Positions 438-34,309 of a DNA stretch of 64,000 nucleotides are shown here, one piece after another. Within the stretch, counting starts at the first letter, position 1. Each line of letters opens with the position of its first letter. The translations under genes were made by a program, and so were the position numbers. The notes below the pieces were generated by a model. That model ran no database searches, was not told the origin of the DNA, and saw nothing but the letters and a program-made list of their open reading frames with translations. The DNA is from Orbicella franksi (taxonomy: Eukaryota): NCBI GenBank assembly GCA_964199315.1, contig OZ116702.1, forward strand, positions 18,166,001 to 18,230,000, written 5' to 3'.

Positions 438-1721
438 TAACAACAAGTACATGAAGTCTCATGATGACAAAGCACCTTCAAAATACATCATGTATCTCGA
501 CGCAAACAATCTGTACAGTAGGGCTGTGAGCCAGTATCTACCAACTGGTAATTTCAGATGGAAGAAAATCGAAAAACTTGATATATCAAAGTATGAAGAA
601 GACGGTAAAAAGGACTGACTTTAGAAGTTGATCTCGAATATCCAAAAGAGCTGCATGATCTTCATAATGATTATCCTCTTGGACCTGAGCACGTGAATTT
701 AACTGAAAATATGTTGTCAGAGTATTGTCAAAAAATCAAGAACAAATACAACATATCAATTGGACAAGTAAAAAAAACTGATTCCAACCTTGAGCAAAAA
801 AATAAATATGTTCTTCACTATTGAAATTTACAATTGTATATGGATTTAGGATTAAAACTAACCAAAGTACATTGAGCATTAGAATTCAATCAATCTCTAT
901 GGCTGAAACAGTATATCGACTTCAATACACAAAAAAGAACTCAAGTGAACAATTCATTTGAAAAAGATTTCTTCAAACTAATGAATAATTCAGTATTTGG
1001 AAAGACGATGGAAAACATTCGAAAAAGAGTAGATGTGGGACTTGTAACTGATAAAAATAAACTATTAAAAATGTCATCGAAAACCGACTTATATATCATC
1101 AAAAATATTCAACAAAAATCTTATGGCAGTACATTAAAGATCAAAGAAACACTAACCCTAAACAGGCCAGCATATGTAGGTATGTCTATTCTTGATCTCA
1201 GCAGGACATTGATGTATGATTTCCATTATAATTATATCAAACAAAAATACAGTAACAAAGCAAAATTATTATTCACAGACACAGACAGTTTAACATATGA
1301 AATAGAAACAGAAGATGTGTATGAAGACTTCTGGCAAGACAAAAATAAATTTGACAACAGTGATTATAATAAAGATAGTAAATTCTATGATGAAACAAAT
1401 AAAAAAGTCATCGGTAAATTCAAGGATGAAGCAGCTGGTGCAGTTATAAAAGAATTTATTGATTTGAGAAGTAAAATATATTCATATATTAAAGACAATA
1501 ACGAAAACAGGAAGACAGCCAAAGGCATCAAGAAGATTGTTATAAAAAAGGATATTCAATATGACGATTATAAAAACACACTATTCAATACCTAGCAGAT
1601 GTACCACAAAATGACAGCAATTCGAAGCGATACAGGAAGCTATGAGCTCAACAAAGTATCACTGTCATACTTCGATGATAAGAGATTCATACATACTTGT
1701 AATAATAGAATAACAAGTTAT
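438..1721 (+). pseudogene. Polinton/Maverick-type family B DNA polymerase, C-terminal part, frameshifted
   Basis: PolB motifs YLDANNLY, KLMNNSVFGKTMEN, FTDTDSL, IGKFKDE spread over several frames (ORFs 394..618, 945..1595) with stops and frameshifts. Confidence 0.85.
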
Positions 1722-3136
1722 TCCTATCAACTAGATATATATACACGGTATTAAACAATAGGCTAATTGCTGGACTAGTTGCATTACAATAAGTGATAGT
1801 TATACTGGAAAACAATAGGTGTGAAGACAGAAACTACGGGGACGAGTATAAACTGCGTGGGTGCAGTACAATATAAAGAAAGTGTCAAGCGCTCTTCAAG
1901 TAGAATTTGTTCTCGTGCCGGCATTTAGAAATAAGTTCTGATCTTTTGTTTAGTAGATTGTCGTTGCTATGTTTGATAATCATTAGTTTTTCTGTGAGGC
2001 AGAGGTCGCATCGTTTGGAAATGTTGTTGTAGGGTCTTGCACGGCTAATAATTGACCATTTGATGTTGAAGTCTTGTTTTTTGTCGTGTAGTTGCCAGAT
2101 GTATTTAGAAAGCTCGGTGCTGTTGATGTGTTTTCTGTGCTTAAATGTGGATTTGTGCTGCGAGAATCTCTGTTTGAATGTTCCTTCTGTCAGTCCAATG
2201 TAGTTCTTGGTTGTGTTGTTAGTTGTAACTTGTGCGTTGTAGATTACACTGGAAGTCAGGCATTTGTTGTCTAGCGGGCATTGGTCTTTTTTGCGGCAGT
2301 TGCATTGCTCTCCGGTGATTGCGTTGGCGTTGTTGTCGGCGTTTGTTATTTTCATGTTGTGTTTGTTGATTACTGTTTTCATGTTGTCCATGCAACTGTA
2401 GCTGACTTTGACGTTGTTTTTGTTGAAGAGGCTGTGGTATTTATGTTGGTTCGGAAAGTGCTTAGATATGAGCTTCAGGAATGTTCTACCGATGTTTGTC
2501 TTTACGTTTTTACTAAATGGAGGGTTGTACCATATAATGTTTCTTTGTCTGTTGCGTCGGGGGCGTGTTGGTTGATTGTCTTCGTTGTAAATTAGTGTTT
2601 CAGAGTATCCGCTGGCTTTCAAAGCAGTTTCGTAGATTGGTTTGGCCTTGTTGAATTCGTGTTCGTTGCATGAGTTGGCGGAAATACGGCGATTGATGGA
2701 TGCTGGAAGTTGCTTTATTATGTTAGGTGGGTGGTTAGACTTTGTGTTGATGTACTGCGGCTCGTCGTTAGGCTTTCTGTAGGGGCAGTAGGTACCTTTT
2801 GTAAGATCGAAGGTGACGTCCAGGTAGTTAACAATTTTCATGTTAGTCTGTATGGTAATGTTAAGTCCATATGTCTTGAAGCGTCTTGTTATGTCCTTCC
2901 TTGTACGGTCTGCTTGAGGTCCGGAGATGTTTTTGAAGATGGCAAGTCCGTCGTCTCTGTAAAGCCCGATGTTGTCTATCCCGTATATGTTACACAGGTC
3001 GTCGAGAATGAATAAGCCTACGAGCTCGCATACTTCGGCTCCGTCGAAGCTGCCCATAGTAACGTCAAAAGAACTGTTGTTTTTCTTGATCCAGGCGGTG
3101 TTACTGTCAAAGAGAAGGGATTTTCTTGAATGCATA
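1720..3136 (-). repeat. Inverted copy of the 3' 1.4 kb of the Penelope element (ORF 1885..3162)
   Basis: Reverse complement of 3664-5080; the translations differ only at YIG/YTG and LKSA/LKNA. Confidence 0.95.
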
Positions 3137-4915
3137 TTCATACCCGCTGACAAAACAACCAACTACTACGAAGTAGACAAAGCTTCGCACGACAAGCTTC
3201 TCAAGGACAATATCACATCGACGTACAAGAAAGCAAATTCTAATACGATTACTGCTATTAACAAAGAAGCTCAAGTCATTGCTACTAATCTGAACATTGA
3301 CGACCGCGCGGAACGCATGGCTGAACGACAGGCTTTTATAACACTCAAAGACCATAAAGACAACTTCCAGAACAAACCTACATGTAGACTCATTAACCCT
3401 GCAAAAAGTGAGATTGGACGTATCAGTAAAGAAATCCTCGCGAACATTAACACGACTGTGAGACAGAAGACTGGCCTTAACCAATGGAAAAACTCATCAT
3501 CCGTCATCAACTGGTTCTCCTCTATACAACACAAAGATCAACATACCTTCGCCGTATTTGACATTGAGAACTTCTACCCTTCCATTACTGAGAAACTTCT
3601 TACAGACGCAATCAACTTCGCCAAACAATTCACTTCCATTACGGACCGCGACATCGATATTATTATGCATTCAAGAAAATCCCTTCTCTTTGACAGTAAC
3701 ACCGCCTGGATCAAGAAAAACAACAGTTCTTTTGACGTTACTATGGGCAGCTTCGACGGAGCCGAAGTATGCGAGCTCGTAGGCTTATTCATTCTCGACG
3801 ACCTGTGTAACATATACGGGATAGACAACATCGGGCTTTACAGAGACGACGGACTTGCCATCTTCAAAAACATCTCCGGACCTCAAGCAGACCGTACAAG
3901 GAAGGACATAACAAGACGCTTCAAGACATATGGACTTAACATTACCATACAGACTAACATGAAAATTGTTAACTACCTGGACGTCACCTTCGATCTTACA
4001 AAAGGTACCTACTGCCCCTACAGAAAGCCTAACGACGAGCCGCAGTACATCAACACAAAGTCTAACCACCCACCTAACATAATAAAGCAACTTCCAGCAT
4101 CCATCAATCGCCGTATTTCCGCCAACTCATGCAACGAACACGAATTCAACAAGGCCAAACCAATCTACGAAACTGCTTTGAAAGCCAGCGGATACTCTGA
4201 AACACTAATTTACAACGAAGACAATCAACCAACACGCCCCCGACGCAACAGACAAAGAAACATTATATGGTACAACCCTCCATTTAGTAAAAACGTAAAG
4301 ACAAACATCGGTAGAACATTCCTGAAGCTCATATCTAAGCACTTTCCGAACCAACATAAATACCACAGCCTCTTCAACAAAAACAACGTCAAAGTCAGCT
4401 ACAGTTGCATGGACAACATGAAAACAGTAATCAACAAACACAACATGAAAATAACAAACGCCGACAACAACGCCAACGCAATCACCGGAGAGCAATGCAA
4501 CTGCCGCAAAAAAGACCAATGCCCGCTAGACAACAAATGCCTGACTTCCAGTGTAATCTACAACGCACAAGTTACAACTAACAACACAACCAAGAACTAC
4601 ACTGGACTGACAGAAGGAACATTCAAACAGAGATTCTCGCAGCACAAATCCACATTTAAGCACAGAAAACACATCAACAGCACCGAGCTTTCTAAATACA
4701 TCTGGCAACTACACGACAAAAAACAAGACTTCAACATCAAATGGTCAATTATTAGCCGTGCAAGACCCTACAACAACATTTCCAAACGATGCGACCTCTG
4801 CCTCACAGAAAAACTAATGATTATCAAACATAGCAACGACAATCTACTAAACAAAAGATCAGAACTTATTTCTAAATGCCGGCACGAGAACAAATTCTAC
4901 TTGAAGAACGCTTGA
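3137..4915 (+). CDS. Penelope RT-GIY-YIG ORF (5'-truncated, open)
   Basis: RT motifs FDIENFYPSI, MGSFDGAEVCELVG, LYRDDGL; endonuclease VIY...Y(T)G, RF.QH, with CNC-x5-C and CDLC cysteine motifs. The true element frame starts at about IFIPADKT. Confidence 0.88.
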   Translation, partial: FIPADKTTNYYEVDKASHDKLLKDNITSTYKKANSNTITAINKEAQVIATNLNIDDRAERMAERQAFITLKDHKDNFQNKPTCRLINPAKSEIGRISKEILANINTTVRQKTGLNQWKNSSSVINWFSSIQHKDQHTFAVFDIENFYPSITEKLLTDAINFAKQFTSITDRDIDIIMHSRKSLLFDSNTAWIKKNNSSFDVTMGSFDGAEVCELVGLFILDDLCNIYGIDNIGLYRDDGLAIFKNISGPQADRTRKDITRRFKTYGLNITIQTNMKIVNYLDVTFDLTKGTYCPYRKPNDEPQYINTKSNHPPNIIKQLPASINRRISANSCNEHEFNKAKPIYETALKASGYSETLIYNEDNQPTRPRRNRQRNIIWYNPPFSKNVKTNIGRTFLKLISKHFPNQHKYHSLFNKNNVKVSYSCMDNMKTVINKHNMKITNADNNANAITGEQCNCRKKDQCPLDNKCLTSSVIYNAQVTTNNTTKNYTGLTEGTFKQRFSQHKSTFKHRKHINSTELSKYIWQLHDKKQDFNIKWSIISRARPYNNISKRCDLCLTEKLMIIKHSNDNLLNKRSELISKCRHENKFYLKNA

Positions 4916-5095
4916 CACTTTCTTTATATTGTACTGCACCCACGCAGTTTATACTCGTCCCCGTAGTTTCTGTCTTCACACCTATTGTTTTCCAGTATAA
5001 CTATCACTTATTGTAATGCAACTAGTCCAGCAATTAGCCTATTGTTTAATACCGTGTATATATATCTAGTTGATAGGAATGCTTATCATTAAATA

Positions 5096-8892: not shown

Positions 8893-10827
8893 GAAGGGGT
8901 GAGTGCAAAACCATGCTAAGTGACGATTTGGGTGAAAATAAAATTTTCGCGAAAGGGCTTGAATTTTTGCATGTGGTCTTCAATGTAATAGAAAAACGTG
9001 GCCCTGTATTTTTGTCGCTGGTTTTTGCTTCGTTTTCAAGTTATAACGTATGCAAAAATACTTGGCTTTTCCTAGCCATGTCTTTACGAGTTTATTTGTT
9101 GAACAGCAAACAGGCAGACTGTTTATAGTGTATCAAGTCAAAATCAAATCTCACAGCATATATAGAACAGAAATCTGGGAACAGATTGTTTACGTCAGGT
9201 ATTGTGACGTGAGCACAACACGTGAATCGATCAAGAGTCAAACGAAATTCATCAAACAAAAAAGAGATGTACTGCATTAGAGCTCTGCCAAGTAATATCT
9301 TAAGCATTGTTTTAAAGTGCCTTGTGTGCCTGCCCGGTGGTTGAGAGGCATCATAAAGCCTCGATAAACCCGTAAGTCATCAGCACGTTTTAAAGAATCA
9401 AAATGTGTTCTGAAACTTCGAAGGCAGCTGATATACCGTAATCGTGTTATCGGCGTTCCAAGTCAGATCGAGCCAGGCAGCAAAGTCCAAGAGCAGTTCT
9501 TGCCCAAAAAAAATACCCTCTGGTGAGTCGTGGCCCATTTGCCAAGCATTGCTAGCATCAAAGTTTGGAAAGCGAGAACTGGTTTTAGACTTACAAAATT
9601 TGTCTTGTATCAACCGCCATGTTTTCCTGCGCACGAGGTGTAAAGACCCTTCCCGACATGCATTGCGATCACGTTCTGCGGACGTTTCTCGAACTGGTAA
9701 CTAGATTGTTTAAACATAAGAATGGCCAACAAGTAGCGATCAATTGTAACATAGATCTGTGATCCAGGTTGCATTGATTTTATTTCAAATCGGCATGATT
9801 TGTAGTGTTTTGAGCTTCTGTGATCAGCGGACATGCAGATGTATGAAGACCCATACGTTGCGGAGAAGGGTTAATCTGTTAATATGTCAGCCCTATTTAT
9901 AGCGCGTTTTCACGTGAAATCAACATCATTGAGCTTATAAGTTGCGTGAAATTACCATTTTGCTGTTTTCTAAGTGAAACTAGCATCCTTGCCCTCACGC
10001 GTTAACGTGAAATCAACATTTTAACCTATTTAGACCTGAAATCAACATCATTGAGCGTATGCACTGTGTGACATTGACATTTTGCTGGTTTCTAAGTGAA
10101 ACCAACATCCTTGCCATCACGCGTTAACGTGAAATCAACATTTTAACCTATTTAGACCTGAAATCAACATCACTGAGCTTATGCATTGTGTGAAATTGAC
10201 ATTTTGCTCATTTCTAAGAGAAATCAACCTCCTTGCTGTCACGCGTTAACGTGAAATCAACATTTAAACCTTTTTTGACCTAAAATCAACATTTTTGAGC
10301 TTATACGTTGCGTGAAATTGACATTTTGCTGTTTTCTAAGTGAAATCAAAGTCCTTGCGGACGCAGCGGGCCGATCCTTTGTTATGATAAACCGAGGCGA
10401 GACTTCGACTTATAACAAAGGCTTGGCTTGGCTATTATAACAAAGGATCGGCTCTGTTTATCATAACAAAGGCCCGACTTCGTTTATTTGAAGACCTCGG
10501 CGGGAAAAGGGCATTAGGTATTTTAATCAAAAGTGAACTTTGTCGAAAACGCTCCAAATTTCGCATGCAGTTTTGTTTAGGTATGTTTAACAATGTCCCG
10601 TAGTTTTTCCACTAAGCTTCGCTTCGTTTTCGAGATATTGTGTATGCAGAAAAACCACTCGGTTTTCCTAGTGGCGTCTTTATAAATGAAGCAAAAACCA
10701 GCGACAAAAATACAGGACCACGTTTTTCTATTACATTGAAGACCACATGCAAGAATTCAAGCCCTTTCGTGAAAATTTTTTTTTTCACTCAAATCGTCAC
10801 TTAGCATGGTTTTGCACTCACCCCTTC
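8893..10827. mobile_element. Non-autonomous DNA transposon with about 140-bp TIRs and AATT TSD (Sola-like by TSD, inference)
   Basis: GAAGGGGTGAGTGCAAAACCATGCTAAGTG... at 8893 mirrors ...CACTTAGCATGGTTTTGCACTCACCCCTTC ending 10827; AATT at 8889-8892 and 10828-10831; removal restores a TAGCACAAT x3 run. Confidence 0.85.
9910..10345. repeat. Tandem array, about 121-122 bp unit, about 3.5 copies, inside the TIR element
   Basis: AAATCAACAT(C/T) unit starts at about 9918, 10039, 10161, 10283. Confidence 0.85.
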
Positions 10828-12512
10828 AATTATTAGCACAATGAAGTAGCACAATGATTGCCCCAGCACCTGCTACATGCATGGTGAAACTCACAGTGTG
10901 GATTAACTGCAATGCAAGGACCAGCATTCCAAGAATAGCAAATGACCTTACTAGAAGCATTACCAGAGGCCTCTGCCTGGGATGAGACAACACTGGATGA
11001 GGCTGGGCGAGTGCAAACTTGAGCGCCAGCTGTACGGTAGTTGAAAAGCTGAACATGCATCTTAGACCAGTCGGTGACTTTTTCTGCTGCCGCGTGCTCC
11101 CTGAAGGCCCGCTCATAGTCCAGCCAACAAAACCCACTAAATTGATGATATGTTCGGAGTTTTAAAAGCTTGTAGCTTGTCAGATCTCTCCATCGATGAG
11201 GGAAAGACGAGCAGATAATGAGATAAAAACTGGAAAAGGTTTCCATCCACGAAGCGATGTCCGTAATCAGGAGCTTCCATTTTTTAGGCGTGTGCGACAA
11301 CACTAAGTGGCCACTGAATTAAAGTTGCAGCTCCTGCTGAGGAATGGTAATGTTTTCTGCTAATAAATCTTCCAGATTCACGAACTTTCCTGCAGTGATT
11401 CAAGAAACAGCCTTGGAAAGGCATTGGTGAGTAGCCAGGGCCAACCACAAAAGGCTGTTGAAAAGGTGAGGCTGTCAGTGAGGGAACCGCCATAGGACTT
11501 ACAAATAGTTGAGAAGCAAAAACAGAATTAACTGTAGCCAGTAGGCTGTAAACCGCAGAAGAACAAGGTGCCATGGAAGACAAAACAGCCAAGGAAAATA
11601 CAGGAACGAAAGATGGGACGACAAGAGACGACAACATACCTGTTGATACATTTGCTCGCGAAGCCATTGGTACTGGAGGAGTACTGGACGAAGAAGTCAA
11701 CGGCAAAAACCCAGCAGGAGCTGATGAAGACCAAGATTGATGAAAGCTGCATGCATCCAAGTGTGCCGCATGAGTAGCAAGGGAAGAACCTTGAGCGGCA
11801 ATGGCAGGAAGGCCTTAAGAAACTGAATAAGAGTCAACCGTGGCAGATAACAACTGCTGTACGATAGCTGAAATTGAAGTTTGGATGGCCTGAATCACAG
11901 AGGCTAAAAATTCTGGTGATATGGAAGCACTAGCAGGAGTACCAGATGCTTGCACAGATGTCGACAGGGCATTAGTTGTGACTGAAATGGCGGACGCTGG
12001 AGCTGAAGACACTGCCGGCACAGAGCTATCCAAACCATTTTTAGTACGTCGAGGAGGCATGACAGCCAAGGAGATTGCAAAATGGTGAAGGAAACAGAGT
12101 GATAACTGCTGGCCAACAGCAGATCTCCCAGTTAACTCTGATTATTGATAATCTCATTTATTTAATAGTTTTGAATTCTTACTGTAGTTGGCAGGACCCT
12201 GTTGATAACAGCACTTTGTACTGAAGGGTTATCCTGGGAAAACATTCAATGAGGAAGAGGAGGAGGAGGATCATTTCCCAAAATGTTTTGTTCCTTTTCC
12301 TCTTTGGTTCAAGTATCACTCTTTCAGACCATTTACCGATCAGATTTGTGACCTACTGGCGTGCTCTCTTTCAAACTTTGATGCAAAATTGGCAACTGAT
12401 GATAAGGGCCAAACGACTACAAGTTATTGGGGTTATACTTGCAAACCAAATGGAACAAACCTAACCGGAACTTCTACCGTATAATTTCTAAAGATACTTA
12501 CAAAAAAAAGAG

Positions 12513-13239
12513 CAGTAATATAATCCGTAAAATCCAACTTTTCCAACCCTCAAGTAAAGAAGTTTTGAAGCCTTGAAACTTGCAGTATGATTTAACAGCA
12601 AGGGGAATATATTAAGCCAGGAGGAATTTATTTGGGATGGTGCAAAAGACGGATTTCACAGAAATGTGAATATTAAACAACCATTATTATATCACTTCCC
12701 TCTATTCCTGTAAGTATGTTATGTAATATTATTACTATAATATTGTATAAGATACTTACAGAAGGGAAGTAATATAATAATGGTTGTTTAATATTCACAT
12801 TTCCGTGAAATCCGGAAAATCCATCTTTTCCACCCCTCAAATACAGAAGTTTGAAGCCAAAGAACTTGCAGTATGATTTAACAGCAAGGGAATATATTAA
12901 GCCAGGAGTTCATTTGAGAGGGCAGAAAAGACGGATTTTCCGGACTTCAAAGAAATGTGAATATTAAACACCATTATTATATTACTTCCTTTTATTTCTG
13001 TATCTTATATAATATTATAATATTATATAAGATACTTACAGGAATAAAGGGAAGTAATATAATAATGGTTGTTTAATACTGTATTCACATTTCCGTGAAA
13101 TCCGGAAAATCCGTCTTTTCCGCCATCTCAAATGAACTCCTCGTGGCTTAATGTATTCCCCTTGCTGTTAAATCATACTGCAAGTTTCAAGGCTTCAAAC
13201 TTCTTTACTTTGGGGGCGGAAAAGTCGGATTTTCCGGAC
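12513..13239. repeat. Compound fold-back (palindromic) repeat
   Basis: About 230-bp module present forward, partly inverted, forward, inverted; AT-rich palindrome centres near 12735 and 13015. Confidence 0.8.
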
Positions 13240-13858
13240 TCCTAAATTTCTCTGCCTGACTGAAATAGCTTCAAATAACTCAGAGATGTTTGTACAACAA
13301 ATTGAAAGTATGAAACTTCTTGTTATGAGTGCTCATTTCGTTAAATCAGTTCAGTCTTTAAAGACTCGTACAAACAGTTTTAAACTTTTTGAAAGCAGTT
13401 GTTTACGTAGTGAATTTATGATAATCTGCTAATTTTTATGTTCGACGTGAATTAGCCTGAATGACTTGAAAACTCTCCAGAAAACACAATCAAGAAATGT
13501 GGAAAGACAAATCTATTGTTGACGTAGAAAGGCTCCCTTGATTACAGTGGTGCTGTTAGTGATTTGCATTTGACCTTGGTTCATCGTCAATGGCAAATTA
13601 GGATTGATGAGTGGCGTGAAACGCCTTCATCTAGTTGAAGTAACAAGTTCTTTTCATCCTTGAGGTGCAGAAAGGGCCCCAAAAACAAGTCCGGGGCTTT
13701 TGGGATAATTACACTACTGTTCTTGGTTCCTCGTTAACACATTTCATTAAAAAGATTATACACCAGATGAATTGCGCTTGTTGAAAAGGAAAAAGTCTTG
13801 TCACGGTAAAGAAGCCGCTTGGTTTCAGTAACACTTGAATTATTTACGTTGATCTCAG

Positions 13859-16800
13859 GTTCAATGGCAAATGACAACGGTGTCAGCTTTTCATGCATAG
13901 TAGCGGTCACAAGGTCATCAGTGAGATACCTTAACGTTCCACCTATTACATATATGGTAAGGTATGCGCCAGCTCTGTCAGATTTATTCACAAGTTTCCA
14001 TCCATGATATTTAAGCAGAAGACTTGTAGCTTTTTTACAACCAGCGATTGACAGAGGAAATGCTGCGAGCAAAGAAACCATGTCGACAGCTTAACAACAA
14101 AAAGAGCAAGAGCACTGCAATCTGTTACTTGGCTCCCGTAATCAGTGGAAGGTGCAGTGTTGTAAGTGCAAAATGCATTTGTAATGTGAAAGAAAAGGCT
14201 TTGCCAAAGGCTTGGAACTCGATTTGCCAGAAACGTGATATTTGTGATAGAGCGATTTCAGGTTTGTAAATGTTCAAAGGCTGAAATGATAGAATGACAT
14301 TGTATAACACATGTTCAATTCTTGACGCACATTATCCTACTTTCTTTCAGGTATATCAAACGTAGCGTTCTTCTTCAGTGCAATTTACACTCAAGAAAAA
14401 AAGAAAGGAAGTATCCAGGAAAGCGAAGATGAAAGTGATAACAGTAACGAAGAATTTGAATCATGCCAAGTACCTAGTTCCACTTCACAGCAGTGGCTCG
14501 ATGGAAATTTGGCTTCTGTCAACAAAGCCCTCTGCCCTGCGATTTCCTATTGGGTCACGCTAACGACATTAAATGGTGCTCCTGCAAGTACGATTTCCGT
14601 GCACAAGGCGTTATTGAATTATGGAGTAGACGTTATTGTGGATCAGGTAAAGCGTCTTGTTTAGAATGCAGACTGTTTATTTATGAGTGTACACATTGTA
14701 ACGTTTTCAAGACACGAAAGCAACACTTATTAACACTCAATTAAATAAGTTTAGTCTTAAGGAAAACAAAATACACGGCACTTAAATAAAGTGCTGGCTG
14801 TCTGGAATAACCATAGGGGCTAGAGGAGTCAGACAGCCAGTTAAAATCTTGCAAATTTCCACACAGTTTTTAAAATGCTCTACTTTATGCCTTTTAGGTT
14901 CAATTCCAAGAAGGAAAGGAATGTCCTGCCATGAAAGAGCTTTATAAAGTTTTAAAAGACCACAAAAACCAACATATGCAGGACCTCGTTCTATCATCGC
15001 ATCGGCATTGCTACAAACAAGAAGCCAGGAAAGTTATTGGCGATGATATCAGCTTGATCAGTACACAACAATTGGAAGAGTGTGGCAAAGAGAATGTAGT
15101 GCTAGTTACCATCATCAACAAGAAGTTTCAATCATCTTTGGCCAGCGTGATAGAACGCCTTATCAAGGCAAAGTTACAAATTGACAAGTTCGGATTCACA
15201 GCCTCGAACATTGCAGTGCAACCACCCAGCCCTATGGTGCAAAACGACAAGAGGTTCTCAGATAAGTTGACAATCCTGGTAAACGACATTTCCATTGCAA
15301 TGGAAAAGCTCAGTTATGCCACTTACAGGGGAAAGGTCTACAAAAAGGAAAGCAGGGCAAAGTATGTGTTTTCACACAGATGTGAGGCCCATGCGTTCAT
15401 GAATACTCTTGCCACCAATGAATTCTTCAAGCCTAGACTCATTCGAGAAATGAGAAAAGTGGTGGAGCTATTAGCCGACCCGTACTGCGAATTGTTTAGA
15501 CCACTGGTAATTGTCTATGACCTAATCAAAGTCAACCAAGGCGTCTGTTGGTCGCTAAAAGAGAGGTCCTTCATAAATGATCCTATCCAAGAAGATAAAA
15601 TTGGAAAAGTATCTCCCAGAGCGTTTCCTCCCTTTGACTCAATGCAAGAACCAGATCCAAACTACTTTTGCCAGATCCTCGAAAACAGCCTAAGTCCAGA
15701 AGAACAGTCAAACTTCTGCGAAGATTTCTTGAAGTTGCTTAGTTACAAGAAGAAGCTCAAAGATAAAGTGCCTTGTTTAGTCAGAGACGCTAACAGCGAT
15801 AAAACAAGTCTGTTTTTTCCAATCCTGGGCCTTGTGAACCACGGAAACGTTACCACAGTGACTAAACAACGAGCATTCAACAAGTCTATGATCTCTAAGT
15901 TCACCAAAGTGATATTCATAGATGAAGCTACAGAATCTACACTTGACTTCAACGACTGGAAAACGTTGACACAAGGAGGTTACTCGGCGCACGATGTCAA
16001 ATACCAGGCAGCAAAATCATTTATCAACAGATGCCCAATGATCATCACAAGCCACCGGAAGCTTGACTTCGGTCCTTCCGACCAGCCTGCAATGGACAGA
16101 CGATTGTCCACGTACGAATTCTGTAGCCTGCTAAACCCACAAGAGTGCAGCCACATGGCTAAGGAACCACCCCATGGACTGTGTACTCTGGGCCACCAAA
16201 AAGGCCAGGACACATAGAGATGATGGTGAAGAAGATCCAATTGAAACAGAGGAAGAGCAATCTTTCCTCGAAGACGGAATCTTGCAAGAAAAGGAAAAGG
16301 ACGAACTACGCGCTTTGTGTTTAGACCAGGGAGCGGACGACACCTGCAATCAGTCTGTAAGGGAAGACGAAATCCCACAAGACGCTGTGCCAGACACTGA
16401 AAGTGAGTCAGATTCATGCAGCCAATCAGGCGATATCGCAGATATCTTGGAAAACCAGCTTGGAATGCTGAAGCCAGAGTCTTTAACATAGGATAATAAC
16501 CCACATGCTGGACACAGAGCAGGAAAAGCAACAAAGACAAGTCCTGTTTGAGCAGGAGCGCTACGCTCAGCGTAAAGCCTGGTTAAAGGACAGAGGCGTG
16601 TCTAGTCAGAACGCAGAGCTTCTTCCCGAGGAATCTGACGAACCAACGCCTTCACCAATCGCAAGAGATCTCAAGAGGTTTACATGCGCCCAAACGCATT
16701 GCCAAGCTGCCCGGAAAGCCTTCGAGGGTGCGTGGCTGAAGGAGACGGAAAAAGAGTTGCAGGACTGTGTAAGGCGCTTGCACTCTACCCAACATCCCCC

Positions 16801-17287
16801 GACGAGAAATTAATTGGAGGCATACCAGGAGGTATTGGAAGATAAGCTGAAGAACCACCACAAAAACCTTGGCACGCTTGGCTCTAAAGAGGCCTTGGAG
16901 GAGTGGAGGCGCACGTGCGTCTCCCTTGGTCTACTAGACAGGGGACACCAGCATTTGGTGAAATGCATCTTTGAGGCCTTACCAACCAAAGAAGAACTTG
17001 GACCTTTGCCTACAGGTTCACAACAGGAGACAGGAGGGACACGGGCTGGGAAAGCATCAGAAAGTGACGACGAAAGAAGCTTGTTCATTACGCCGCTTCC
17101 CAGGGCTGCTCCAGCGACCTCGCCGTCGCGTGCCAGTTCAAACGCCTATGACCTGGTGGTTTTAGAGGAGTTGATGCGCAACAGCACTAGAGGTAGTAAG
17201 AGAAAGAGGTCAAAGCGTTGTGCTCACAGTCAAGTGAGTGAGAAGAGGCCTCAAAAAACTCTGCTTAATTACTTCAGTCAGAAATAG
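13859..17287 (+). pseudogene. Spliced SF3 (D5/NS1-like) helicase gene, decayed, with C-terminal PIP box
   Basis: Exons 13859(or 13829)-13956, 14045-14261, 14351-14646, 14898-17287 join in frame through GT-AG introns; Walker A relic VRDANSDKTS, Walker B VIFIDE, motif C IITS; frameshifts near 16140 and 16485, stop at 16811. Confidence 0.75.
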
Positions 17288-17592
17288 AAATTACATTAAA
17301 TAATGAAACGAATATCACTGTACCAAGCTTAGGTGCAGAAAGAGTTAAAGTTGAAGTTACGATTGACTCAACTAATTACCCAGGCAGTGAGGCCTGGGTT
17401 TAAATTTCGGCTGTTTTTTTTCCACGTTCAGTCACAAATCGCCGTCTGGTCTCTAAAGCACATGAGTCACCTGTGCATGCGTACAGCACGTGGAATTTAC
17501 AGAGGTTGTCATCAAAAAAAGTTAGCACGGATTCCATGATTTCTAGGGCAATGAAATCACATACAAACGAACACACCATTCGTACATAAAGT

Positions 17593-18101
17593 ATGGTGAA
17601 TTTTAAGCTTTATTAACTTATCACTACTCACGATGACTTCGATAGCGTTGATCCTAGCAGTATGCAGGACACCTATCATATATGAACTCAGTTAAATGAC
17701 CTTGCTCTCCATGAGTTCTTGTAACTCAGTGGATAGAGCGCCCGCCCGGTGTTCGGGAGGTCATGGGTTTGATTCCTGTCGGGGACTCAGCATTTTTCTT
17801 TGTCCCACGCTCGTGTCATGTTGATTAATTCACCTTCACATTTCATTGCCAAGCTTAAAATTCACCATCTTTATTAACCTATCACTACTCACGATGACTT
17901 CGATAGCGTTGATCCTAGCAGTATGCAGGACACCTATCATATATGAACTCAGTTAAATGACCTTGCTCTCCATGAGTTCTTGTAGCTCAGTGGATAGAGC
18001 GCCCGCCCGGTGTTCGGGAGGTCATGGGTTCGATTCCTGTCGGGGCCTCAGAATTTTTCTTTGTCCCACGCTCGTGTCATGTTGATTAATTCACCTTCAC
18101 A
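17593..18101 (+). repeat. tRNA-like tandem repeat (261-bp unit, about 1.9 copies) with a short inverted 5' junction
   Basis: Units start at 17608 and 17869; A box TAGCTCAGTGG, B box GGTTCGATTCC, then a T run; 17593-17610 is the reverse complement of 17851-17868. Confidence 0.85.
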
Positions 18102-18111
18102 AATTGTGATG

Positions 18112-18480
18112 TTATAGGAGATTAATAAAGTTGACCCTCCTCGAATTTTTAAGTCTGTGCATTTTCCCAAGCTCAGATATTCGTCGAAATATTTCGCACA
18201 AATTTACAGAGACCAGTATGGAACTGCCATGTTGGTGTACCTCCGCAGTACACCTACATTGCAGCCGGAAAATATTGTAAACATCTGGAACTTACTTTGG
18301 CTATCTAGGCAACTGATTATCTGTACTGAACAAACAAGCATTTACATGAGCACTTTTCCTAATACTTTAACTTCTAAATGGGCTAAAAATCACGAGATAA
18401 GTATATGATTTCGACAACCGCATTCGTAGGTCTATGTCACTCACTGCCATAACTATGAAATTCAAAATGTCTCGCTTGCT
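18112..18480. mobile_element. MITE-family fragment, homologous to 58570-58880
   Basis: Shared blocks ATTCGTCGAAAT...CACAAATTTACAGAG, AACATCTGGAACTTACTTTGG, GAAATTCAAAATG. Confidence 0.65.
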
Positions 18481-18847
18481 TGAGAAACGCAAATAACAAT
18501 GACAAAGGCTAAGGAAAATAGACTGAAACATTTATATGTTGATATAAAGACCTTGACTCATTTCACACCCTAAAGACTTGCAAACAAGTAATAAGCTATT
18601 AATCGATTCCAAGAAATGCAATCAAAAGCAGAATAGCTTAAGCACATCAATTCAGTTGAATTTCGTACAACTTCAAATGCAGAACATTTAGCTCAGTTGC
18701 AGTATAGCTATTGCTTCTCAGTATAATGACTGCCTGGGTACACGCAGCAAAGCGTCTAGTTGTTTAATGACTATGAGTACTTGCACTTGAAAGATGAACA
18801 GAGTGTGACGTTAAGACTGACTACTTTTGTACATGTTTGTAGTGTTG

Positions 18848-20552
18848 TTAAACTAGTGGCATTTTGAGTACAGCCCTTTTCTTGAGAGAATCTGCTGTTC
18901 TTCCCTCTTGAAATTTGAAATCGGAATCTCTCAGAATGGCCGTCCATTGTCCATATCCGTGCCTGTTCATTCCTCGCTTGAGAAAATTGTCCTCGTCTGC
19001 CATGAATTTCATCACCCGATGAAGTTTCCTCTGATTTCGCAGGTTCTCGGTGGGAATTACAACCTTCCTGGGAGGAGACAGGCTTGCCTTTTCCATAGTT
19101 TCAACCGGAAGTGTCAAGCTAGAAGTTGAACCGCCAAACCTTGCCTGTACACCTTCGTCCACTTCTGAACCCTTGCTTCCTTGAAGCTTTTGTAGACACT
19201 CGCAAGCCTTCACAGCAACTTTGTGCAATCTCCGCTTTTGATAGTGAACTTTGGCAACAGCAGAACTGTGTTTCTGGTCTTCCGACAAAATCCTTTGCTC
19301 CTTGCTGGTGAGCTGATTGAGGCTTTCCATCTCAACAATTTGGCGATAACACATAGGATGAATGTACTTTCCAACAGCATCAAAAACCAGTCTTCTCATA
19401 ATTTCACCCAATTTACTGTGTTGGCCAAGTGTTACTCTGTTGACAAGAACGAAATCACACTCGGGCTTGCGCAGCGGTCTGACATACGAGATGTAGCCAT
19501 CGAGAACTTGCATGTTTGCATCGGTCAGAATCAAAGAATCAAATCCTTACTTTCCAGCAGCCTTGAACGTTTTCTGATCAATAAATCCACCCTTTTCCTT
19601 AGCTGTAGCAATCATGTCCACCATCAAATATTGATAAGTCATGGGACGCAACCCCTTCACTTTAATGAACAGATACATGGCAACGAATTTCATGGCAAAT
19701 GTCAAGTCTGAAGGGTTGACTTGAGCTGGACTCGATTTGCAAATCTTCACGGTATTTTCATAACGCAGCAGAGGAAATTTCACCACCTCCAACAACTCCT
19801 CCGTTATTGCCCAGTGGCCTCTTGCTTCCAGTGTCTCAATGTCAAAATCTTGCATCCACTACAATGTCATCATTTTTGCAACTGTCTTTCATGCTCTTTT
19901 GAGGTACAACTCTGTTGCAGAGAACTTTCGAAGAACTGCCTCCAGCGTGCCATGAAGTTTTCTGAAGTTGATCATTTCAGAAATGGCATCTATGTAGCCT
20001 AAACGCTCACATGTCCAAGCTTGCATTCGTCTTGTAAGTAGTCGATAAACTTGAACAAATCTGGAGAACACAAACTAAAGTCCACCATGTCAAAAGTCAA
20101 CTCTTCCTCGTCTTCACAACAAAATCTAAAAAACTTAAAGCACCTTGTCTCTAATTGTTGAGCTGCACGATCTTTCTTGCAACCACCACCACTTCCATCT
20201 CATGAATACTTCAACAAAGTCACACAACAATGAAAATGAGAGAAGTAACTTTCCGGCATGTTTTGTAGTCTCACTTGTTTGATCTTGAATTGTGTTCACC
20301 ATTGGAATATTTCTTGCTACCTTTAGCAAATCTGTGATTTCTTTTGAATTGGGCTTTTCGAGAGAAAAGAACCAACTGTGCTTGGTATTAACATGTTTTC
20401 TGCACCCTCTGAATTTGAAATCCATCATGGTCACACTCTCATATTGGGCAGTGATACAAGCTGTCGGTTTCATCCTTTTCCAAGTGAAGCCATTTTGGTT
20501 TGGGTAATGCTCCATCAAAATCCGACCAATCGACTTTGCACTTCTTGCTCAT
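18848..20552 (-). pseudogene. C2H2 finger - tyrosine recombinase - Myb/SANT (telobox-like) fusion gene, decayed
   Basis: N-terminal YHCPI.ECDH...CRKHVNTKH; YR motifs KGLRPMTY (Arg), KTFK, HPMCYR (HxxR relic), HSSAVAKVHY (Tyr); C-terminal F.ADED.FLK.G..RHG.GQW.AIL.D..FKF..GRT.DSLK.R; several stops and frameshifts. Confidence 0.75.
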
Positions 20553-20837
20553 TTTGCCTTTTGAAGAGCATTTGGCCAACACGATCTCCTTTAAATCTAA
20601 ACCATAACCAAGGAGTCGATGACAAATAAAGGAACTGCATGTTTGTATTTGCCAAGGCATGCCCTTACTTGCCCGCCCTCATTACTATTGTGCAAAATTC
20701 ATGACAGTAAGATGTAACCAAACTTGCCGAAGCAGGTCTGAGTACACCTCATTGTTCGCCTTATTCACAAATGACACCATAATTTGGGAACATAATCAAA
20801 ATGCGTAAAAAATGACCCCAAATCTGTTCCCAAATGA

Positions 20838-21390
20838 CCAATTTGGGGACAATATGTTCCATTTACAGACAGGAACTCGGAACAAAACAGTCCTAAATGT
20901 CCAATTGTTTAACAAACTGTTCCATTCATAGAGGGGAATTTGGAACAAAGCGGTCCTAAAAATATCAATTTGGGAACGATATGTTCCGTTGGCATGTGAG
21001 AATTTGGAACAAAACAGTCCTAATTTACCAATTTGGGAACGAATTGTTCTGTTTACAGAGAGGAACTCGGAACAAAACAGTCCTAATTTACCAATTCGGG
21101 AACAATGTGTTCCATTTACAGAGGGGACCTTGGAACAAAACAGTCCTAAATGACCAATATGGGAACAATGTGTTCCGTTTACAGATAGGAACTTGGAACA
21201 AAACAGTCCTAAATGACCAATTTGGGAACAATCTGTTCCATTTACAGAGGGGACCTTGGAACAAAACAGACCTAATTTATCAATTTTGGAACAATGTGTT
21301 CCATGCACAGATAGGAACTCGGAACAAAACAGTCCTAATTTATCAATTTGAGAACAATATGTACCATTTACAGTTGGGAACTCAGAACGA
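20838..21390. repeat. 63-bp minisatellite, about 9 copies, each with a GGAAC-N5-GTTCC palindrome
   Basis: GGAACAAA(A/G)C(A/G)G(T/A)CC recurs at about 20879, 20942, 21006, 21069, 21132, 21195, 21258, 21321. Confidence 0.92.
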
Positions 21391-21789
21391 AATGTTCCTC
21401 TTTTACACCAGAGTGAAGGTTTTGTTCCTACATTGTAAAAAATCTGGTCCTCTTATAGTCAATAGGAACACAAAAACGAGGAACAGTCGATACTAGAGGA
21501 ACGTTCCTTTTGAAATATAGGAACAGCCAACAAAACTTAAAGTCAGCGAGAAAACGAGGCAAAGACTAAAGAAAAACTCAAAAAAGCGTAGGTCAAGCAC
21601 TTAGGTGAAATGGAAACAATATTTAAAATCTGGTGAAGTTTGTTTCACTCAAACGTAGCAAAACGTGCAATGATAAATTTTTGGGAAGTGTATAGGAGGA
21701 GGAGGACGACAACGACGACGACGATGACGACGATAATTATTATTACTAGAAGATGTTTGCTGTCTGCAAATACTTAGTTATACTTAGTT

Positions 21790-26798: not shown

Positions 26799-29700
26799 TG
26801 TAACGAGTATGCGTACACAAAGTACAAGTCCAGTTCCCGCCTCGGGGATCACGTGACAGCGGGGCTCATGTGGTCGGCCATGTTGTAGTTTTCGTCATTG
26901 CTATTTAGTGCATTAAATAAGTTGTTTTGCGGACACTGTTGTTTATTTACTTGTCGTTACATGGTGTCAGAAGTTTCCCGAATCCACACTACAAGAAAAC
27001 CAAATGATTTGTGGCAGAAGTCGCCGAATTTATGAGCGAACGCAGTGGTGAAGATAGCGAACAGCTTCCTTCAACAAGTCCAATTTCAAGTTTGACAACA
27101 ATGGCGAATTTCCAAATACCTCCTCCTGACATACTCGAGTTAAACGATGGTTCGACAGCATCCAATTGGCGAACTTGGGTCTCGGCTTGGAATAATTACA
27201 GGTTGGCTACGAAGCTAGATAACGAGGAAGAAGCGCGCCAAGTAGCGACCCTTTTGGCAGTAATTGGAAAAGAAGCGAACAAAGTGTTTCATACTTTTAC
27301 ATGGGCCTCGCCAGACAAGGCCAAGAAAATCGCTTTGGTTGTAACCAAGTTTGAAGAGTATTGCATTCCCAGGGAAAACACTATTTACGAATGTTTCCTT
27401 TTCTTTACGCAGGATCAGCGGGAATCTGAAACTGTTGACCAATATTTGATGGAGCTTTGCCAAACTGCAGCAAATTGTGATTTCAAGTCAATCACACCCG
27501 ATCAGCTTCTCTGGGATCGACTGGTGACAGGTACCAAAACTGCCAAGGTACGTGAAAATTTGCTCAAAGAGAAGAAATTGACCCTTGAGAAAGCTATAGA
27601 TATCGCTCATGCTGCCGAGAGTACGGCCGTGCAAGTGAAAGTTATGTCTGCTGAGTCCGGATTGAGTGCTGTGAAAGAGAAACAGAAAGAGAAAGAGCAG
27701 TCAGAAAATCTCCCGTCTGTCAGCGGTGGCTGGATCAAGGACTGCAGATTCTGTGGTCGGAACCACGAAAGACGCAGCTGTCCTGCCTTTGGTCAGATAT
27801 GTGCATATTGTAAAAAGAAGAATCATTTTGTTGTCAAGTGCCCAGCAAAAAGCAAGGTGTCTAATATCCAAATGCGATTCTATTTAAGTGCTGCAGGCGT
27901 TGGTAACGGAGGTCGTGAGATGGTGACCCTTACTGTATCAAAGGAGCCTAAGGCCCTTTCAGGTCATGATGTAACTTTCTTGATGGACACTGGGGCTGAA
28001 TGCAATCTTTTGCCCTTGGATGTCTACAAGAGGGCGACAGACGATTTACACTTGAAATTCCTCAATGCATGCGGAAAGTCAGTCCTGGTTTTAGCTAATG
28101 GAGATGAGCAACCCATTGAGGGCAAAGCCACAGTGTATGTCTCCTGCAGAGGAAATGCGCACAAAATAGAAGTCAATGTAGTCAGGGGCCATGGGTATGA
28201 GCCCATACTGTCCAAGCAGACAATGCTGAAAATGAAGTTGATAAAGATCTTGACAGTGACCGAGATCCACGCATCAATGTACTGAAGACAGACACAGAAC
28301 CATTGCTGGAAGAGTATGACGGTGTATTTAAAGGCCTTGGAAAGTTGGACGGACAATACCACATCGTAAGAGACGAGTCCATCAGACCTATAGTACATCC
28401 TCCACGGCGTCTACCTGTTGCAATGACTGGGCGAGTTCAGAGGAAACTCGAAGAAATGGCAGCTGCCAACATAATCAAACAAATCGACCAACCTACTGAC
28501 TGGGTGTCAAGTATGCTAGTAGTGAGCAAGCCATCCACTGAAGCTGAGGGGGAAACCAAATTATGAATCTGTTTAGATCCCAGAGATCTGAATCTTGCCA
28601 TAAAGCATGAACACTTCCCGATGCCCACAATTGAAGAAATTGCAACTAGGCTGAATGGGGCAAAACTCTTCAGTGTTTTTGATGCCAGTAATGGTTTCTG
28701 GCAAGTAGAACTTGATGATGAGTCTAGTACTTTAACAACATTTAACACCCCGTTTGGGCGTTACCGTTGGAAGCGAATGCCATTTGGCACCAATAGTGCA
28801 CCGGAAGTTTGGCAGCGCAAAATGCGAGAGCACATTGAGGGGCTTAAAGGAGTAAAGGTCATTGCAGATGATTTTGTCATCGCTGGATTTGGCAACACAC
28901 CTGCTGAGTGGCAGGCAGATCATGACCGGAATGTGTGTGCCTTCCTGGAGTGCTGCCGTGAGAGAAACCTGAAGTTGAACAAGAAGAAAGCTCGACTGAG
29001 ACAGCAAGAAGTTCCTTTCATCAGACACGTTCTAACCCCCAAGGGACTGAAACCAGATCCACTCAAGGTAGAGGCCATTGTGGGAATGCCAAACCCCAGT
29101 GATGTTCAGTCCTTACATAGGTTTCTTGGCAAAGTTCCTCCCACGTCTATCTGAAGAAACAAAGGTCCCGAGAAGACTCACTGAAAAGGATGCTGAGTGG
29201 TGTTGGATGAAAAGTTATGCAGATGCTGTGGCCCGTGTCAAGGAAATGATTGTATCTGCACCTGTACTTGCCTACTATGACATCAATAAGCCAGTGGTCA
29301 TTCAATGCGACGCTTCCCAAAGCGGACTTGGCGCAGTTCTGTTACAAGAAGAGGGCCCAGTGGCTTACAGCTCTCGTGTGATGACTCAAACTGAACAAAA
29401 CTATGCTCAGATTGAAAAAGAGCTACTCGCCATAGTTTATGCGTGTGAGAAATTTCATCAGTACATCTTTGGAAGGAGCAATGTAATTGTGCAGTCAGAC
29501 CACAAGCCACTGGAAACGATATTCAGGAAGCCCATCCACAGTTCACCAAAACGCCTCCAACGCATGCGCCTCCGCCTGCAGAACTATGACATCCAAGTGG
29601 AATACAAGAAAGGAGAGACCATGTTCTCGGCTGACACATTAAGTCGTGCATACTTGGAAAATGAGTGTCAGACCCAGGACAGTGACATCCGTTCTACCAG

Positions 29701-31444
29701 AGAACAACTGTTTGCTTTTGAGTTAGAACAGATTAAACATGATGAAGATCTAAGTGTCTCCCCTACTCGTCTGGAAAAGCTGCGTGAGGAGACTTGCCAA
29801 GGACGAAGAATTGGAGATTCTATCTGATGTTATCCATGAAGGTTGGCCAGAGACCCTAGCAGAAGCTCACAAATATGACAGGCGTCGGAGGCAAGTAATT
29901 GAGCTGTATTGGAACAGCTGTGATGAGCTGACCACAGAAGATGGAATGGTATACAAGGGTCATCGTCTTGTGATACCATTTAAAGAGCGTCCTGGCGTTG
30001 TAAAGAGCCTGCATGAATCACATGTTGGAATAGAAGAGACATTGCGTCGTGCCCGCGACACTGTTTACTAGCCTGGGATCACAGCCCAGCTCAAAGATCA
30101 CCTGTCAAGGTGTGGAATCTGTAACCGTTATTAGCCCGAACAATGTAAAGAACCATTAAAGCCTCGTGATGTGCCTAATTTGCCTTGAGAGAAAGTTGGA
30201 GTTGATCTATTTGTGCTGGATAGGCAGTCATTTTTGATAGCCATTGATTACTACTCTGGTTATTTTGAAGTGCAAGATATGAGTAGCACCACCAGCACCC
30301 GTGTGATCACTGTTCTAAAGGCGTCGTTTTCCAGGCATCGTATTCCTGTGACCGTCATCAGTGACAATGGGCCTCCCTTCAACAGTGAAGACTTCAAGAC
30401 TTTCAGTAAGGAATGGGACTTTCACCACGTCACATCAAGCCCTTATCACGCACGTAGTAATGGTCGTGTTGAAAATGCAGTTAAGACCTGCAAATCATTG
30501 CTGACCAAAGCCCGAGCTGATAAGTGTGATCCTCTGCTGGCGTTACTTGAGTGGCGCAACACACCAACTGAGGGTATGAATGCTTCTCCTGTTCAGTTAC
30601 TATATAGTAGGCGAACACGCATCCGTCTCCCAGTAGCCAAGAAATTGTTAACTCCAGAGGTGATAACTGATGTCCCCGAAAAGATCAAGATCAGGAAGCA
30701 GAAACAGAAACACTACTATGATCGCCACTCGCATGGACTGCCAAAATTGCACGACGGTGATGCCATTAGAATGCGATTACCATGCGAGAAGGAATGGTCA
30801 CTGGGGTGCGTCATTGGCGAGGAGGGGGCCCGTTCCTACTTGGTTGAGGTGAATGGAAAGCATTATCGTTGAAACCGCAAATGGCTCAGAGCAACACCCA
30901 AGGAGTTACCAGAGTAAGTGGAGACGAACCTCGAGCTGACGGATCCTACTGAACTGGTTGAGTCAAGCCCAGCTGAGCTGCCACAGCCAATGACACCATC
31001 ATCACCAGTAGTTTCTGGGCCACACACTGAAGGTCATCCAGTGCGTGATCGCCACCCGCCACTGTGGCTAAAAGATTACAAGTGCTAAAATAAGACACTG
31101 ACTCTACCTTGTGCTTTTTTACTTTGGCTTTATTATGTACTTGTGCAGAGCATTTCAGTTGGTTACAGTGTTAAATGCACAAGGTTTTCTAAGGCAGATT
31201 TGAACATGATGTTATTGTTTTCTTCTATTAGTATCAACGTTCTGTCTGCATTTACTGAACTATTAGACTTCGGAAGGGAGATGTAACGAGTATGCGTACA
31301 CGAAGTACAAGTCCAGTTCCCGCCTCGGGGATCACGTGACAGCGGGGCTCATGTGGTCGGCCATGTTGTAGTTTTCGTCGTTGCTACTTAGTGCATTAAA
31401 TAAGTTGTTTTGCGGACACTGTTGTTTATCCACTTGTCGTTACA
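26799..31444 (+). mobile_element. Full-length Gypsy/Ty3 LTR retrotransposon (Mag-like), decayed ORFs
   Basis: 163-bp LTRs TG...CA at 26799-26961 and 31282-31444; TSD CCGTG; PBS TGGTGTCAGAAG (tRNA-Leu type) 26962-26973; PPT 31271-31281. Confidence 0.97.
27011..30872 (+). pseudogene. Gypsy gag-pol: two CCHC knuckles, protease, RT, RNase H, integrase
   Basis: CRFCGRNH...CAYCKKKNHF; MDTGAECN; VIADD; QCDASQSGLG, EKELLAI; SDNGPPF, GRVENAVK; broken by stops and frameshifts. Confidence 0.93.
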
Positions 31445-31800
31445 CCGTGTTCTCTGGCAAGATTTTACAAACAAATACATGAATCCCAATTTATCTTGGG
31501 TAACTTACATGACAGTTGTTTCGTACAATGGTCAGTCGCAAAACCAAAATTGCATGAACGCTGTCAAACTGCCATTCATTGCCTTGCAAAATTTCATGTA
31601 TAGGTTGGTGAATAGCCCTCGCAATTTTTCGTTAACTTATCGAAAATTCAAATAAAAATCGTCCTTTGTTCTAGTAAATTATCGCTCCACAAGCCTTGAA
31701 ATTTCAATCGAGCCTTTGAGCGAACTTTCATCAAAAAATCACGGGAACGAAGAATGAAATTTTGCGCACTTCGCTTGCGTTACTTTTGCACAATACTGTA

Positions 31801-32297: not shown

Positions 32298-33079
32298 TAG
32301 TACCATATCCTCACTGCATACCCATTACCTCATTGCATAAGTTATAAGTTATAAGTTATGGGAAGAGTCCGCGACTGATGAGGCAATAGGCATGCAACAA
32401 GGATATGAGCGGATGTGAGCTTGGTCAACTGCCACCAGGGGAGGTGGGTGGGTCGCAAAAGACGACTGTCTTTGTGGAGTACAGGACGAAAAGACCACAC
32501 TTCAAGTGGAGAGACCAAATCTAAACTCCAAATGGCGCAAAGTATTACCGACACTACCAGCACAGGCGAAAATGGGGGAATGTGATGGAATAACAGCATG
32601 TTTTGCAATGAGCTAATTAATTATGCAGTGAGAATAGTACCATATCCTCACTGCATACTCATTACATCATCACATAAGATTAAGTTATAACAAGAGTCTG
32701 CTCCTGCCCTCACCACCACGACAACAGCTCATAAATTGCCGAACAACACAGACACCACACGTTTCCAACATGACTCCCCTTTAATTCTCTCTATTACTCA
32801 GATCCTCTTATAACCATAATCCCAAAATGAACTTTAAAACAAAAAGGGACTGACAAAACATAATGCAAGCGGGAAATAAGACTAATATAATGATTTAAAC
32901 AATGCATCATAGGTTGCTGGGATGAGACGCCCGTGTCTGGCAAAGGGAATGCAAGGTGGGAATAGGAAAAGAATCAGCTGTACTGGACATCCTAGTATAA
33001 TGTCAAGCCATACCCTTACTGCGCCATCCCAAGTAACGGGATATATCATCTTGCAAACAACCTAGCATATTAAGACTAT

Positions 33080-34133: not shown

Positions 34134-34309
34134 CTGGGAACGAATAGCATAAACAAAAGCTGTCAAGTCACTGGCAGACACATTGAAAAGCTCAAAGGTC
34201 CCGTTGTAGGCTACGCCGGAGCCACTATGGGGAACGTCGAGAAGGAAAAAGAAGCACCAAACTGGAGCCTCTTCTACCCAAAAAGTACGCAGTCAACAAT
34301 CAGAACTTG

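Follow-up and report, generated by a model that had tools for sequence, protein, structure and literature searches.

We found that the helicase gene at positions 13859–17287 of a 64,000-nt stretch of the Orbicella franksi genome (contig OZ116702.1, positions 18,166,001 to 18,230,000 of the forward strand; hereafter the window, whose first letter is position 1) is one half of a two-gene, capsid-less DNA transposon of 9.4 kb, which spans positions 12271–21697. The other half is a gene on the opposite strand (18848–20552, minus) that encodes a C2H2 zinc finger, a tyrosine recombinase and a Myb/telobox domain. The copy in the window is dead. The first-pass annotation, made from the letters alone, had assigned the helicase to a mobile element; the gene is indeed multi-copy and not a host gene, and the element ends and the facing recombinase had been missed. 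Complete elements measure 6.7–10.4 kb, typically 7–9 kb, and carry two genes.

The joined ends of the element resemble a loxP site

The element begins with a 13-bp arm (12271–12283, plus strand) that has one mismatch to sister copies. Immediately outside it lies the left 6-bp core, GGAGGA (12265–12270, plus), which is continuous with the (GGA)n flank and derived from the target. At the other end, the inverted partner of the arm (21679–21691, plus) is followed by the right 6-bp core, ATAGGA (21692–21697, plus), which is subfamily-specific and carried by the element. When the ends are joined, they form a loxP-like site, with 13-bp inverted arms around a 6-bp core; a typical tyrosine-recombinase site is described as having 11–13 bp arms and a 6–8 bp spacer (PMC3212892). 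Exact head-to-tail junctions of this kind occur 10 times genome-wide versus 0 for the control, often between different subfamilies. The tandem junctions are identical to the predicted circle junction, and junction sequence alone cannot tell a tandem from a circle.

Comparison of the left and right cores of 40 elements gives agreement in 14, 16, 26, 25, 39 and 39 elements at positions 1 to 6, respectively. The two cores share 2–3 bp and are fully identical in only three of the 40. The right core is nearly fixed within each subfamily (modal in 9/13, 12/17 and 10/16 elements) and the left core tracks the flank. By this comparison, four bases of the core are supplied by the element itself, and its match to the target is limited to the terminal GA. 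Coupling sequences renewed at each jump, as in Tn916, are disfavoured by the near-constancy of the right core within subfamilies. The flanks are mostly simple repeats, (GGA)n, (GA)n or (GAA)n for subfamilies A, C and D and (TGA)n/(AAT)n for subfamily B, and the purine share of the left flank reaches 0.85 for C and 0.96 for D.

Inside the left end, repeats of about 290 bp with long inverted arms around AT-rich palindromes (12522–13238) form a candidate replication origin. These palindromic repeats are retained in every helicase-deleted copy examined, and 9 of the 17 left-end regions compared have AT-rich palindromes (AT 0.85 or more). A 63-bp tandem array with GGAAC..GTTCC palindromes (20828–21382), located upstream of the recombinase gene, may, judging from its sequence, provide accessory binding sites. 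A 1.38-kb segment between the two genes (17378–18761) does not belong to the element; it is a later insertion that is absent from sister copies, with short inverted ends, two tandem 261-bp tRNA-derived SINE-like units (Rfam tRNA matches at 17715–17787 and 17976–18048) and a near 6-bp flanking duplication.

The window contains further repeats outside the element. A Gypsy-type LTR retrotransposon (26799–31450) has 169-nt repeats at 26799 and 31282 (96%) and pieces of reverse transcriptase, RNase H and integrase, and remnants of a BEL/Pao retrotransposon (Peptidase_A17, integrase zinc finger) lie at 39090–40649. At 32455–38270, 185-nt direct repeats 5.6 kb apart surround an ALOG-domain ORF (33289–33816, minus) and may mark a DIRS-like tyrosine-recombinase retroelement. 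A perfect (100%) inverted repeat of 1423 nt (1720–3142 and 3658–5080, 515-nt spacer) runs across long low-complexity ORFs and is either a very recent inversion-duplication or an assembly artefact. Inverted copies (about 90%) of a separate repeat family with 122-bp tandem units are present at 9159–10653 and 56986–59853, and a 129-aa frame at 45702–46091 has a weak DUF5087 match (E 6e-4).

The facing gene encodes a predicted tyrosine recombinase

The recombinase gene is broken in the window by frameshifts near 20408, 20196 and 20008 and by stops at 19891, 19861 and 19549. Its product has 570–590 aa and comprises a C2H2 finger, a recombinase core and a TRF1-like Myb domain. The structural model (pLDDT 84.7) matches XerA (Z 14.4, rmsd 12.7), XerH (Z 13.8, rmsd 4.8, 292 aa), an integron integrase (Z 12.0) and Cre (Z 11.5), and its Myb part matches the TRF1 Myb domain (Z 10.0). 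Across 37 aligned relatives, the catalytic R, K, R and H are invariant and Y is present in at least 90%; in intact relatives, the catalytic set is R321, K349, H416–R419, H446 and Y455.

Pfam and PDB sequence profiles gave no match to the recombinase core. DUF3504 and GCR1_C, characteristic of CryptonA and CryptonF, respectively, were found in 0 of 37 relatives at E 0.1, and the C-terminal domain is a Myb in place of GCR1_C. The Pfam integrase models missed the relatives too, which makes this absence weak evidence. Sequence and model together make the predicted recombinase the likely mobilising enzyme of the element. A convergent recombinase gene lies within 5 kb at 51 of the 54 helicase loci in the same genome, and at 32 of 34 metagenome helicase loci with room for it. 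The recombinase family comprises 1541 clusters at 50%, including the jellyfish Rhopilema.

The helicase has an SF3 fold and is decayed in the window

The ORF at 14898–16217 has weak Pfam matches to DUF5906 and to the papillomavirus E1 helicase, and the window helicase ORF has no match among PDB sequences. Its proposed identity as an SF3 helicase is borne out by fold comparison, for which we used the predicted structure of a coral relative 64% identical to the window protein; among the best matches are SaPI5 primase-helicase (Z 12.4), AAV2 Rep40 (12.1), B19 NS1 (12.0), vaccinia D5 (11.7) and E1 (10.8). The SF3 signature is complete, with an AAA+ fold, Walker A, Walker B, motif C and Arg finger. 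In the window, these motifs lie on the plus strand at about 15783–15806, 15915, 16041 and 16098, respectively, and Walker A is degenerate in this copy only. Mapping against an unbroken relative 88% identical confirms the decay noted at first pass: both Walker A glycines are replaced, frameshifts occur near 16145 and 16480, and a stop interrupts the frame at 16811.

The N-terminal ~190 aa of the helicase, the domain interrupted by introns, have no match in Pfam or in a PDB profile search and no usable one in the structure Atlas, and the AlphaFold model has pLDDT below 50 over residues 1–193. No HUH motif was seen in the element, the N-terminal domain being unmatched and its model having such low pLDDT, and no primase or polymerase domain was detected in it. 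At the C-terminus, a basic patch is followed by a PIP-box-like sequence motif, QxxLxxYF (17252–17275, plus). Of 50 long relatives, 43 carry a PIP-like motif at the C-terminus, 8 of them with the Gln, a frequency that is not controlled for chance. We take motifs of this type to be PCNA-binding (PIP) motifs, and the helicase may bind PCNA through its own.

The first-pass annotation had called the gene virus-like, which holds for the helicase fold only. That the element is an integrated small DNA virus or satellite, Polinton-like or small and circular, whose capsid was lost or is borrowed, appears improbable to us. SF3 helicases are replication proteins of viruses and plasmids, an intronless clade of the gene exists (see below), and the pairing of a recombinase with a helicase replicase and integration into eukaryotic genomes is shared with tyrosine-recombinase Polinton-like viruses and MELD viruses, as described for them (PMC12220804, PMC8502044, PMC11131425). 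Those viruses, however, have 10–50 kb and genes for capsid and packaging ATPase, whereas the element has two genes, introns and a size that leaves no room, nor any ORF, for capsid and ATPase genes. No capsid, packaging ATPase, reverse transcriptase or DDE transposase gene lies between the ends; no third gene was found between the ends of four copies in the same genome, and none is conserved in 17 left-end regions. In addition, viral contigs contain no relative of the helicase or recombinase, none was found in phages, the viral Foldseek matches of both proteins are only 9–17% identical, and the introns are conserved over a wide clade.

Two spliceosomal introns are conserved among helicase genes

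Three GT-AG pairs, at 13957–14044 (88 bp), 14262–14350 (89 bp) and 14647–14897 (251 bp), lie exactly where the first-pass gene model had them and, with phases 0/1/0, join four open frames from the ATG at 13864. Introns 2 and 3 of that model stand, found at the same site and phase in other copies, while intron 1 with a coding exon 1 is unsupported. The supported exons, all on the plus strand, are 14045–14261, which contains a conserved start Met at 14060; 14351–14646, which encodes the N-terminal domain without known fold and an acidic linker; and 14898–17287, which encodes the SF3 helicase domain and a helical C-terminal part.

Introns 2 (phase 1) and 3 (phase 0) are present at identical position and phase, with GT-AG borders, in 13 of 13 scored copies from the same genome, representing subfamilies A, B and C; 14 copies were tried and one, whose anchor was unmatched, was dropped. 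A lack of junction conservation had been named as a refutation of the first-pass reading; for these two introns the junctions are conserved. Intron 2 measures 89–109 nt and intron 3 200–333 nt, with differences that are not multiples of three among 99%-identical copies, and the flanking exons keep their frame with a pN/pS of 0.16–0.40 between subfamilies. In a wider survey of 85 loci (80 metagenome and 5 from the same genome), 49 of the 60 loci that could be scored at site 2 have an insertion there, as have 49 of 56 at site 3; automatic detection found GT-AG borders in 43/49 and 47/49 of them, respectively. A 96-nt 'gap' at residue 696 among metagenome loci proved to be an artefact of gene model P0257.

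Four outside contigs (L116, L119, L145 and L181) lack intron 3 precisely at the predicted junctions and keep intron 2. L116 is 99.6% identical to subfamily B. The intron 2 donors of the four contigs are mostly non-consensus (GTTTGT, GTTAGG, GTTAGT). The contigs are either part-spliced RNA or intron-loss DNA copies, and under either origin the exact absence indicates that intron 3 was spliced at some time. PolyA RNA yielded 1, 0, 56 and 37 reads from four runs (94 in total, on both strands) and zero splice joints over a 10-kb stretch that includes the 5′ part of an A copy and a D copy; X21/X22 may lack the organism. Fourteen RNA runs contained 0.69–0.82 of the query words; because non-RNA datasets held as much, the word content of these runs probably stems from DNA. 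P elements offer an analogy for regulated intron retention, and intron 2 might likewise be retained in a regulated way.

Exon 1 of the first-pass model (13864–13956, plus) matches subfamily A copies only, and its ATG is absent from two of five A-type copies inspected. From locus L189 it differs at 9 codons non-synonymously and at 2 synonymously; for exon 2 the figures are 10 and 6 over 67 codons. Furthermore, the database gene models of Montipora, Oculina and Desmophyllum begin at the Met equivalent to 14060, and the Porites model runs through it. We therefore reject exon 1 as coding, on the grounds of its A-only match, missing ATGs, non-synonymous excess and the start used by relatives; it is likely 5′ UTR. 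Intron 1 (plus strand), which has a strong donor and GT-AG borders in A-type copies only, is possibly a 5′ UTR intron. Since intron 1 and exon 1 are not supported as coding, the supported N-terminal extension of the 428-aa ORF is about 177 residues, not the roughly 215 proposed.

Two trees, built from two pieces of the helicase for which 69 and 64 of the 85 loci, respectively, were long enough (identical rows collapsed, midpoint root), each separate a clade without introns 2 and 3, with support of 100/99 and 98/98. The introns are thus lineage-specific: both are conserved across clade I, but members of the sister clade are intronless (L162/L163, L168/L170) or have other introns, two in subfamily D and one in L175-type loci. 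On these midpoint-rooted trees, it is simpler to assume that the ancestor had no introns and that they were gained later.

The element is dispersed, young in part, and has helicase-less derivatives

In the O. franksi genome (497 Mb), the helicase has 57 matches, which fall on 54 loci and into at least four subfamilies. The loci are dispersed and differ in their flanks, while their ends are sharp and common to them. We give virtually no credence to a domesticated host gene: such a gene could have introns, as this one does, and annotated gene models exist in several corals, but copy number (at least 54 loci) and element ends refute it, and the window copy is broken. Within-subfamily identity is 98.6–99.7% for B, C and D (6, 6 and 8 copies) and 88.6–93.7% for A (4 copies). 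The window copy belongs to A, the oldest subfamily and a dead one in this genome, and A-type last exons are unbroken in other assemblies. The sister subfamilies spread recently. Named relatives come from corals, an anemone and a jellyfish.

Among 57 exact left ends, 38 belong to copies with helicase and recombinase, 13 to copies with recombinase only, one to a 3′-truncated copy with helicase only, and five to copies with neither gene (two isolated matches, two truncated tandem pieces and one short). No complete element without recombinase was seen among these left ends, and the exact-pattern search by which they were found revealed no gene-free MITE-like derivatives. Internal deletions were mapped in 12 of the 13 helicase-less copies; counted by type, they occur two, one and four times in subfamily B and four times and once in C, and the repeated ones lie at 2, 4 and 4 unlinked loci. 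Helicase-less copies and deletions recurring at unlinked loci indicate that the helicase is not needed in cis. In subfamily B, 7 helicase-less and 6 whole copies are comparably spread, a pattern equally compatible with a dispensable helicase and with one acting in trans.

Two observations concern single loci. One helicase-less copy, L113 (G000:C3:22349448-22353777), combines a left end of A type with a right part closer to C, and is a possible recombinant between subfamilies. The copies at G000:C9:483486 and G000:C11:488229 lie near contig starts, agree in flank and tandem arrangement, and are not independent insertions; they represent either a segmental duplication or an assembly duplicate.

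The recombinase-only copies also bear on whether the helicase takes part in movement at all. The element could be a plain CryptonV-type transposon that cuts and pastes as a circle, with the helicase a long-kept passenger or accessory, although we regard this as unlikely. Recombinase-only elements at 13/57 left ends and recurring deletions speak for a passenger, as do a recombinase family far larger than that of the helicase (195+50 proteins) and the citation of CryptonV as microsatellite-targeting and cnidarian (PMC8869645). Against it, the helicase exons are under purifying selection (the same pN/pS of 0.16–0.40) across lineages only 31–70% identical, the helicase nearly always faces a recombinase, and a selfish element seldom retains 3.4 kb uselessly.

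A proposed cycle of excision, copying and re-insertion

We consider it likely that the element is a two-gene transposon that is excised as a circle by its recombinase, re-inserts at GA, and has its circle copied from a left-end origin by the spliced SF3 helicase. Specifically, the tyrosine recombinase would excise the element as a circle. Re-insertion would take place at a 'GA', either within a microsatellite that is purine-rich or of (TGA)n type or at the end of a copy already in place. Neither circles nor empty sites nor transcripts of the element were seen. The helicase would copy the circle from the palindromic left-end origin with host replication proteins, and might recruit PCNA through its C-terminal motif. 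It would act in trans, or be a booster of copy number and not essential.

For integration, we envisage, by analogy with integrons, a single-strand exchange at the core's GA edge that replication then completes; in integrons, one-sided homology is described as the outcome of a single strand exchange finished by replication (PMC3458562). A two-strand exchange followed by biased repair of the heteroduplex core would be expected to leave a similar core pattern. The likeness to integron attC x attI and to CTXphi lies in one-sided short core homology and in a role of replication, proposed or demonstrated, in completing integration (PMC3458562, PMC3442271). Unlike the coral element, those systems are bacterial and use folded single-strand substrates, and the coral mechanism is inferred from core sequences alone.

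A more far-reaching reading is possible, which we hold as rather doubtful. The element would then represent an undescribed class of animal mobile elements, an integrative plasmid-like transposon that exits by one-strand exchange and replicates its circle with a PCNA-recruiting SF3 helicase. Its spliceosomal introns would have been gained independently at least three times from an intronless ancestor, intron 2 retention might provide self-control, and CryptonV-like elements without a helicase would have descended from it by reduction.

Relation to known elements

We classify the element as a Crypton-type DNA transposon, probably CryptonV-like. As in Cryptons, a tyrosine recombinase is the likely sole integrase, there are no TIRs or TSDs in the DDE sense, and both ends carry a short motif, here shared only in part. 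Unlike Cryptons, the element has a second, spliced gene for an SF3 helicase, a recombinase with a C2H2 finger and a TRF-like Myb domain, visible 13-bp inverted arms, and just 2–3 bp shared with the target. The helicase-bearing family may already be included in the CryptonV entries of Repbase or under a 'Crypton-H' label in repeat libraries.

Crypton ends are described as short (4–6 bp) direct repeats without TIRs, animal Cryptons having no terminal repeats (PMC3212892). By comparison, the element has 6-bp cores at both ends, identical in 3/40, with the inverted arms inside them. Microsatellite targets and cnidarian hosts are shared with CryptonV, which is cited as a target-specific group of cnidarian elements that insert into microsatellites (Kapitonov & Jurka 2012, Repbase Reports, as cited in PMC8869645). 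The word 'helicase' does not occur in the available text of the Crypton survey (PMC3212892). Likewise, the available full-text literature, whose scope excludes Repbase and most subscription papers, contains no description of a Crypton with an SF3 helicase (cf. PMC5753468, PMC4455052, PMC11071296, PMC7805219, 10.64898/2026.10.13.758929).

Two further comparisons are informative. The telomere-targeting recombinases of endogenous nimaviruses are described as combining a C2H2 finger with a SAM-like domain and inserting into simple repeats, but nimaviruses are large viruses, and the likeness rests on domain make-up and target (PMC10871703). The element is also like Helitrons, as a capsid-less eukaryotic transposon with its own helicase and tandem arrays.

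Helitrons encode an HUH nuclease and an SF1 (Pif1) helicase. The coral element differs from them in that its helicase is of SF3 type; no HUH motif was seen in it, with a low-confidence model for the N-terminal domain.

Implications

The element is a DNA transposon of the tyrosine-recombinase kind to which a replication-type helicase has been added, and there is a fair chance that the family is already present in repeat databases. It connects capsid-less transposons with the replication modules of small DNA viruses, points to intron gain and exact intron loss inside a DNA transposon, and provides a predicted eukaryotic recombinase for which a match of about 2 bp to the target would suffice. For active Cryptons, clean excision as well as an increase in their number has been reported (PMC9977147), and the mechanism of copy gain is described as not shown experimentally (PMC13565253). 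The family combines a putative replicative helicase, well-defined ends and young copies with derivatives that naturally lack the helicase, and makes the question of how Cryptons gain copies testable.
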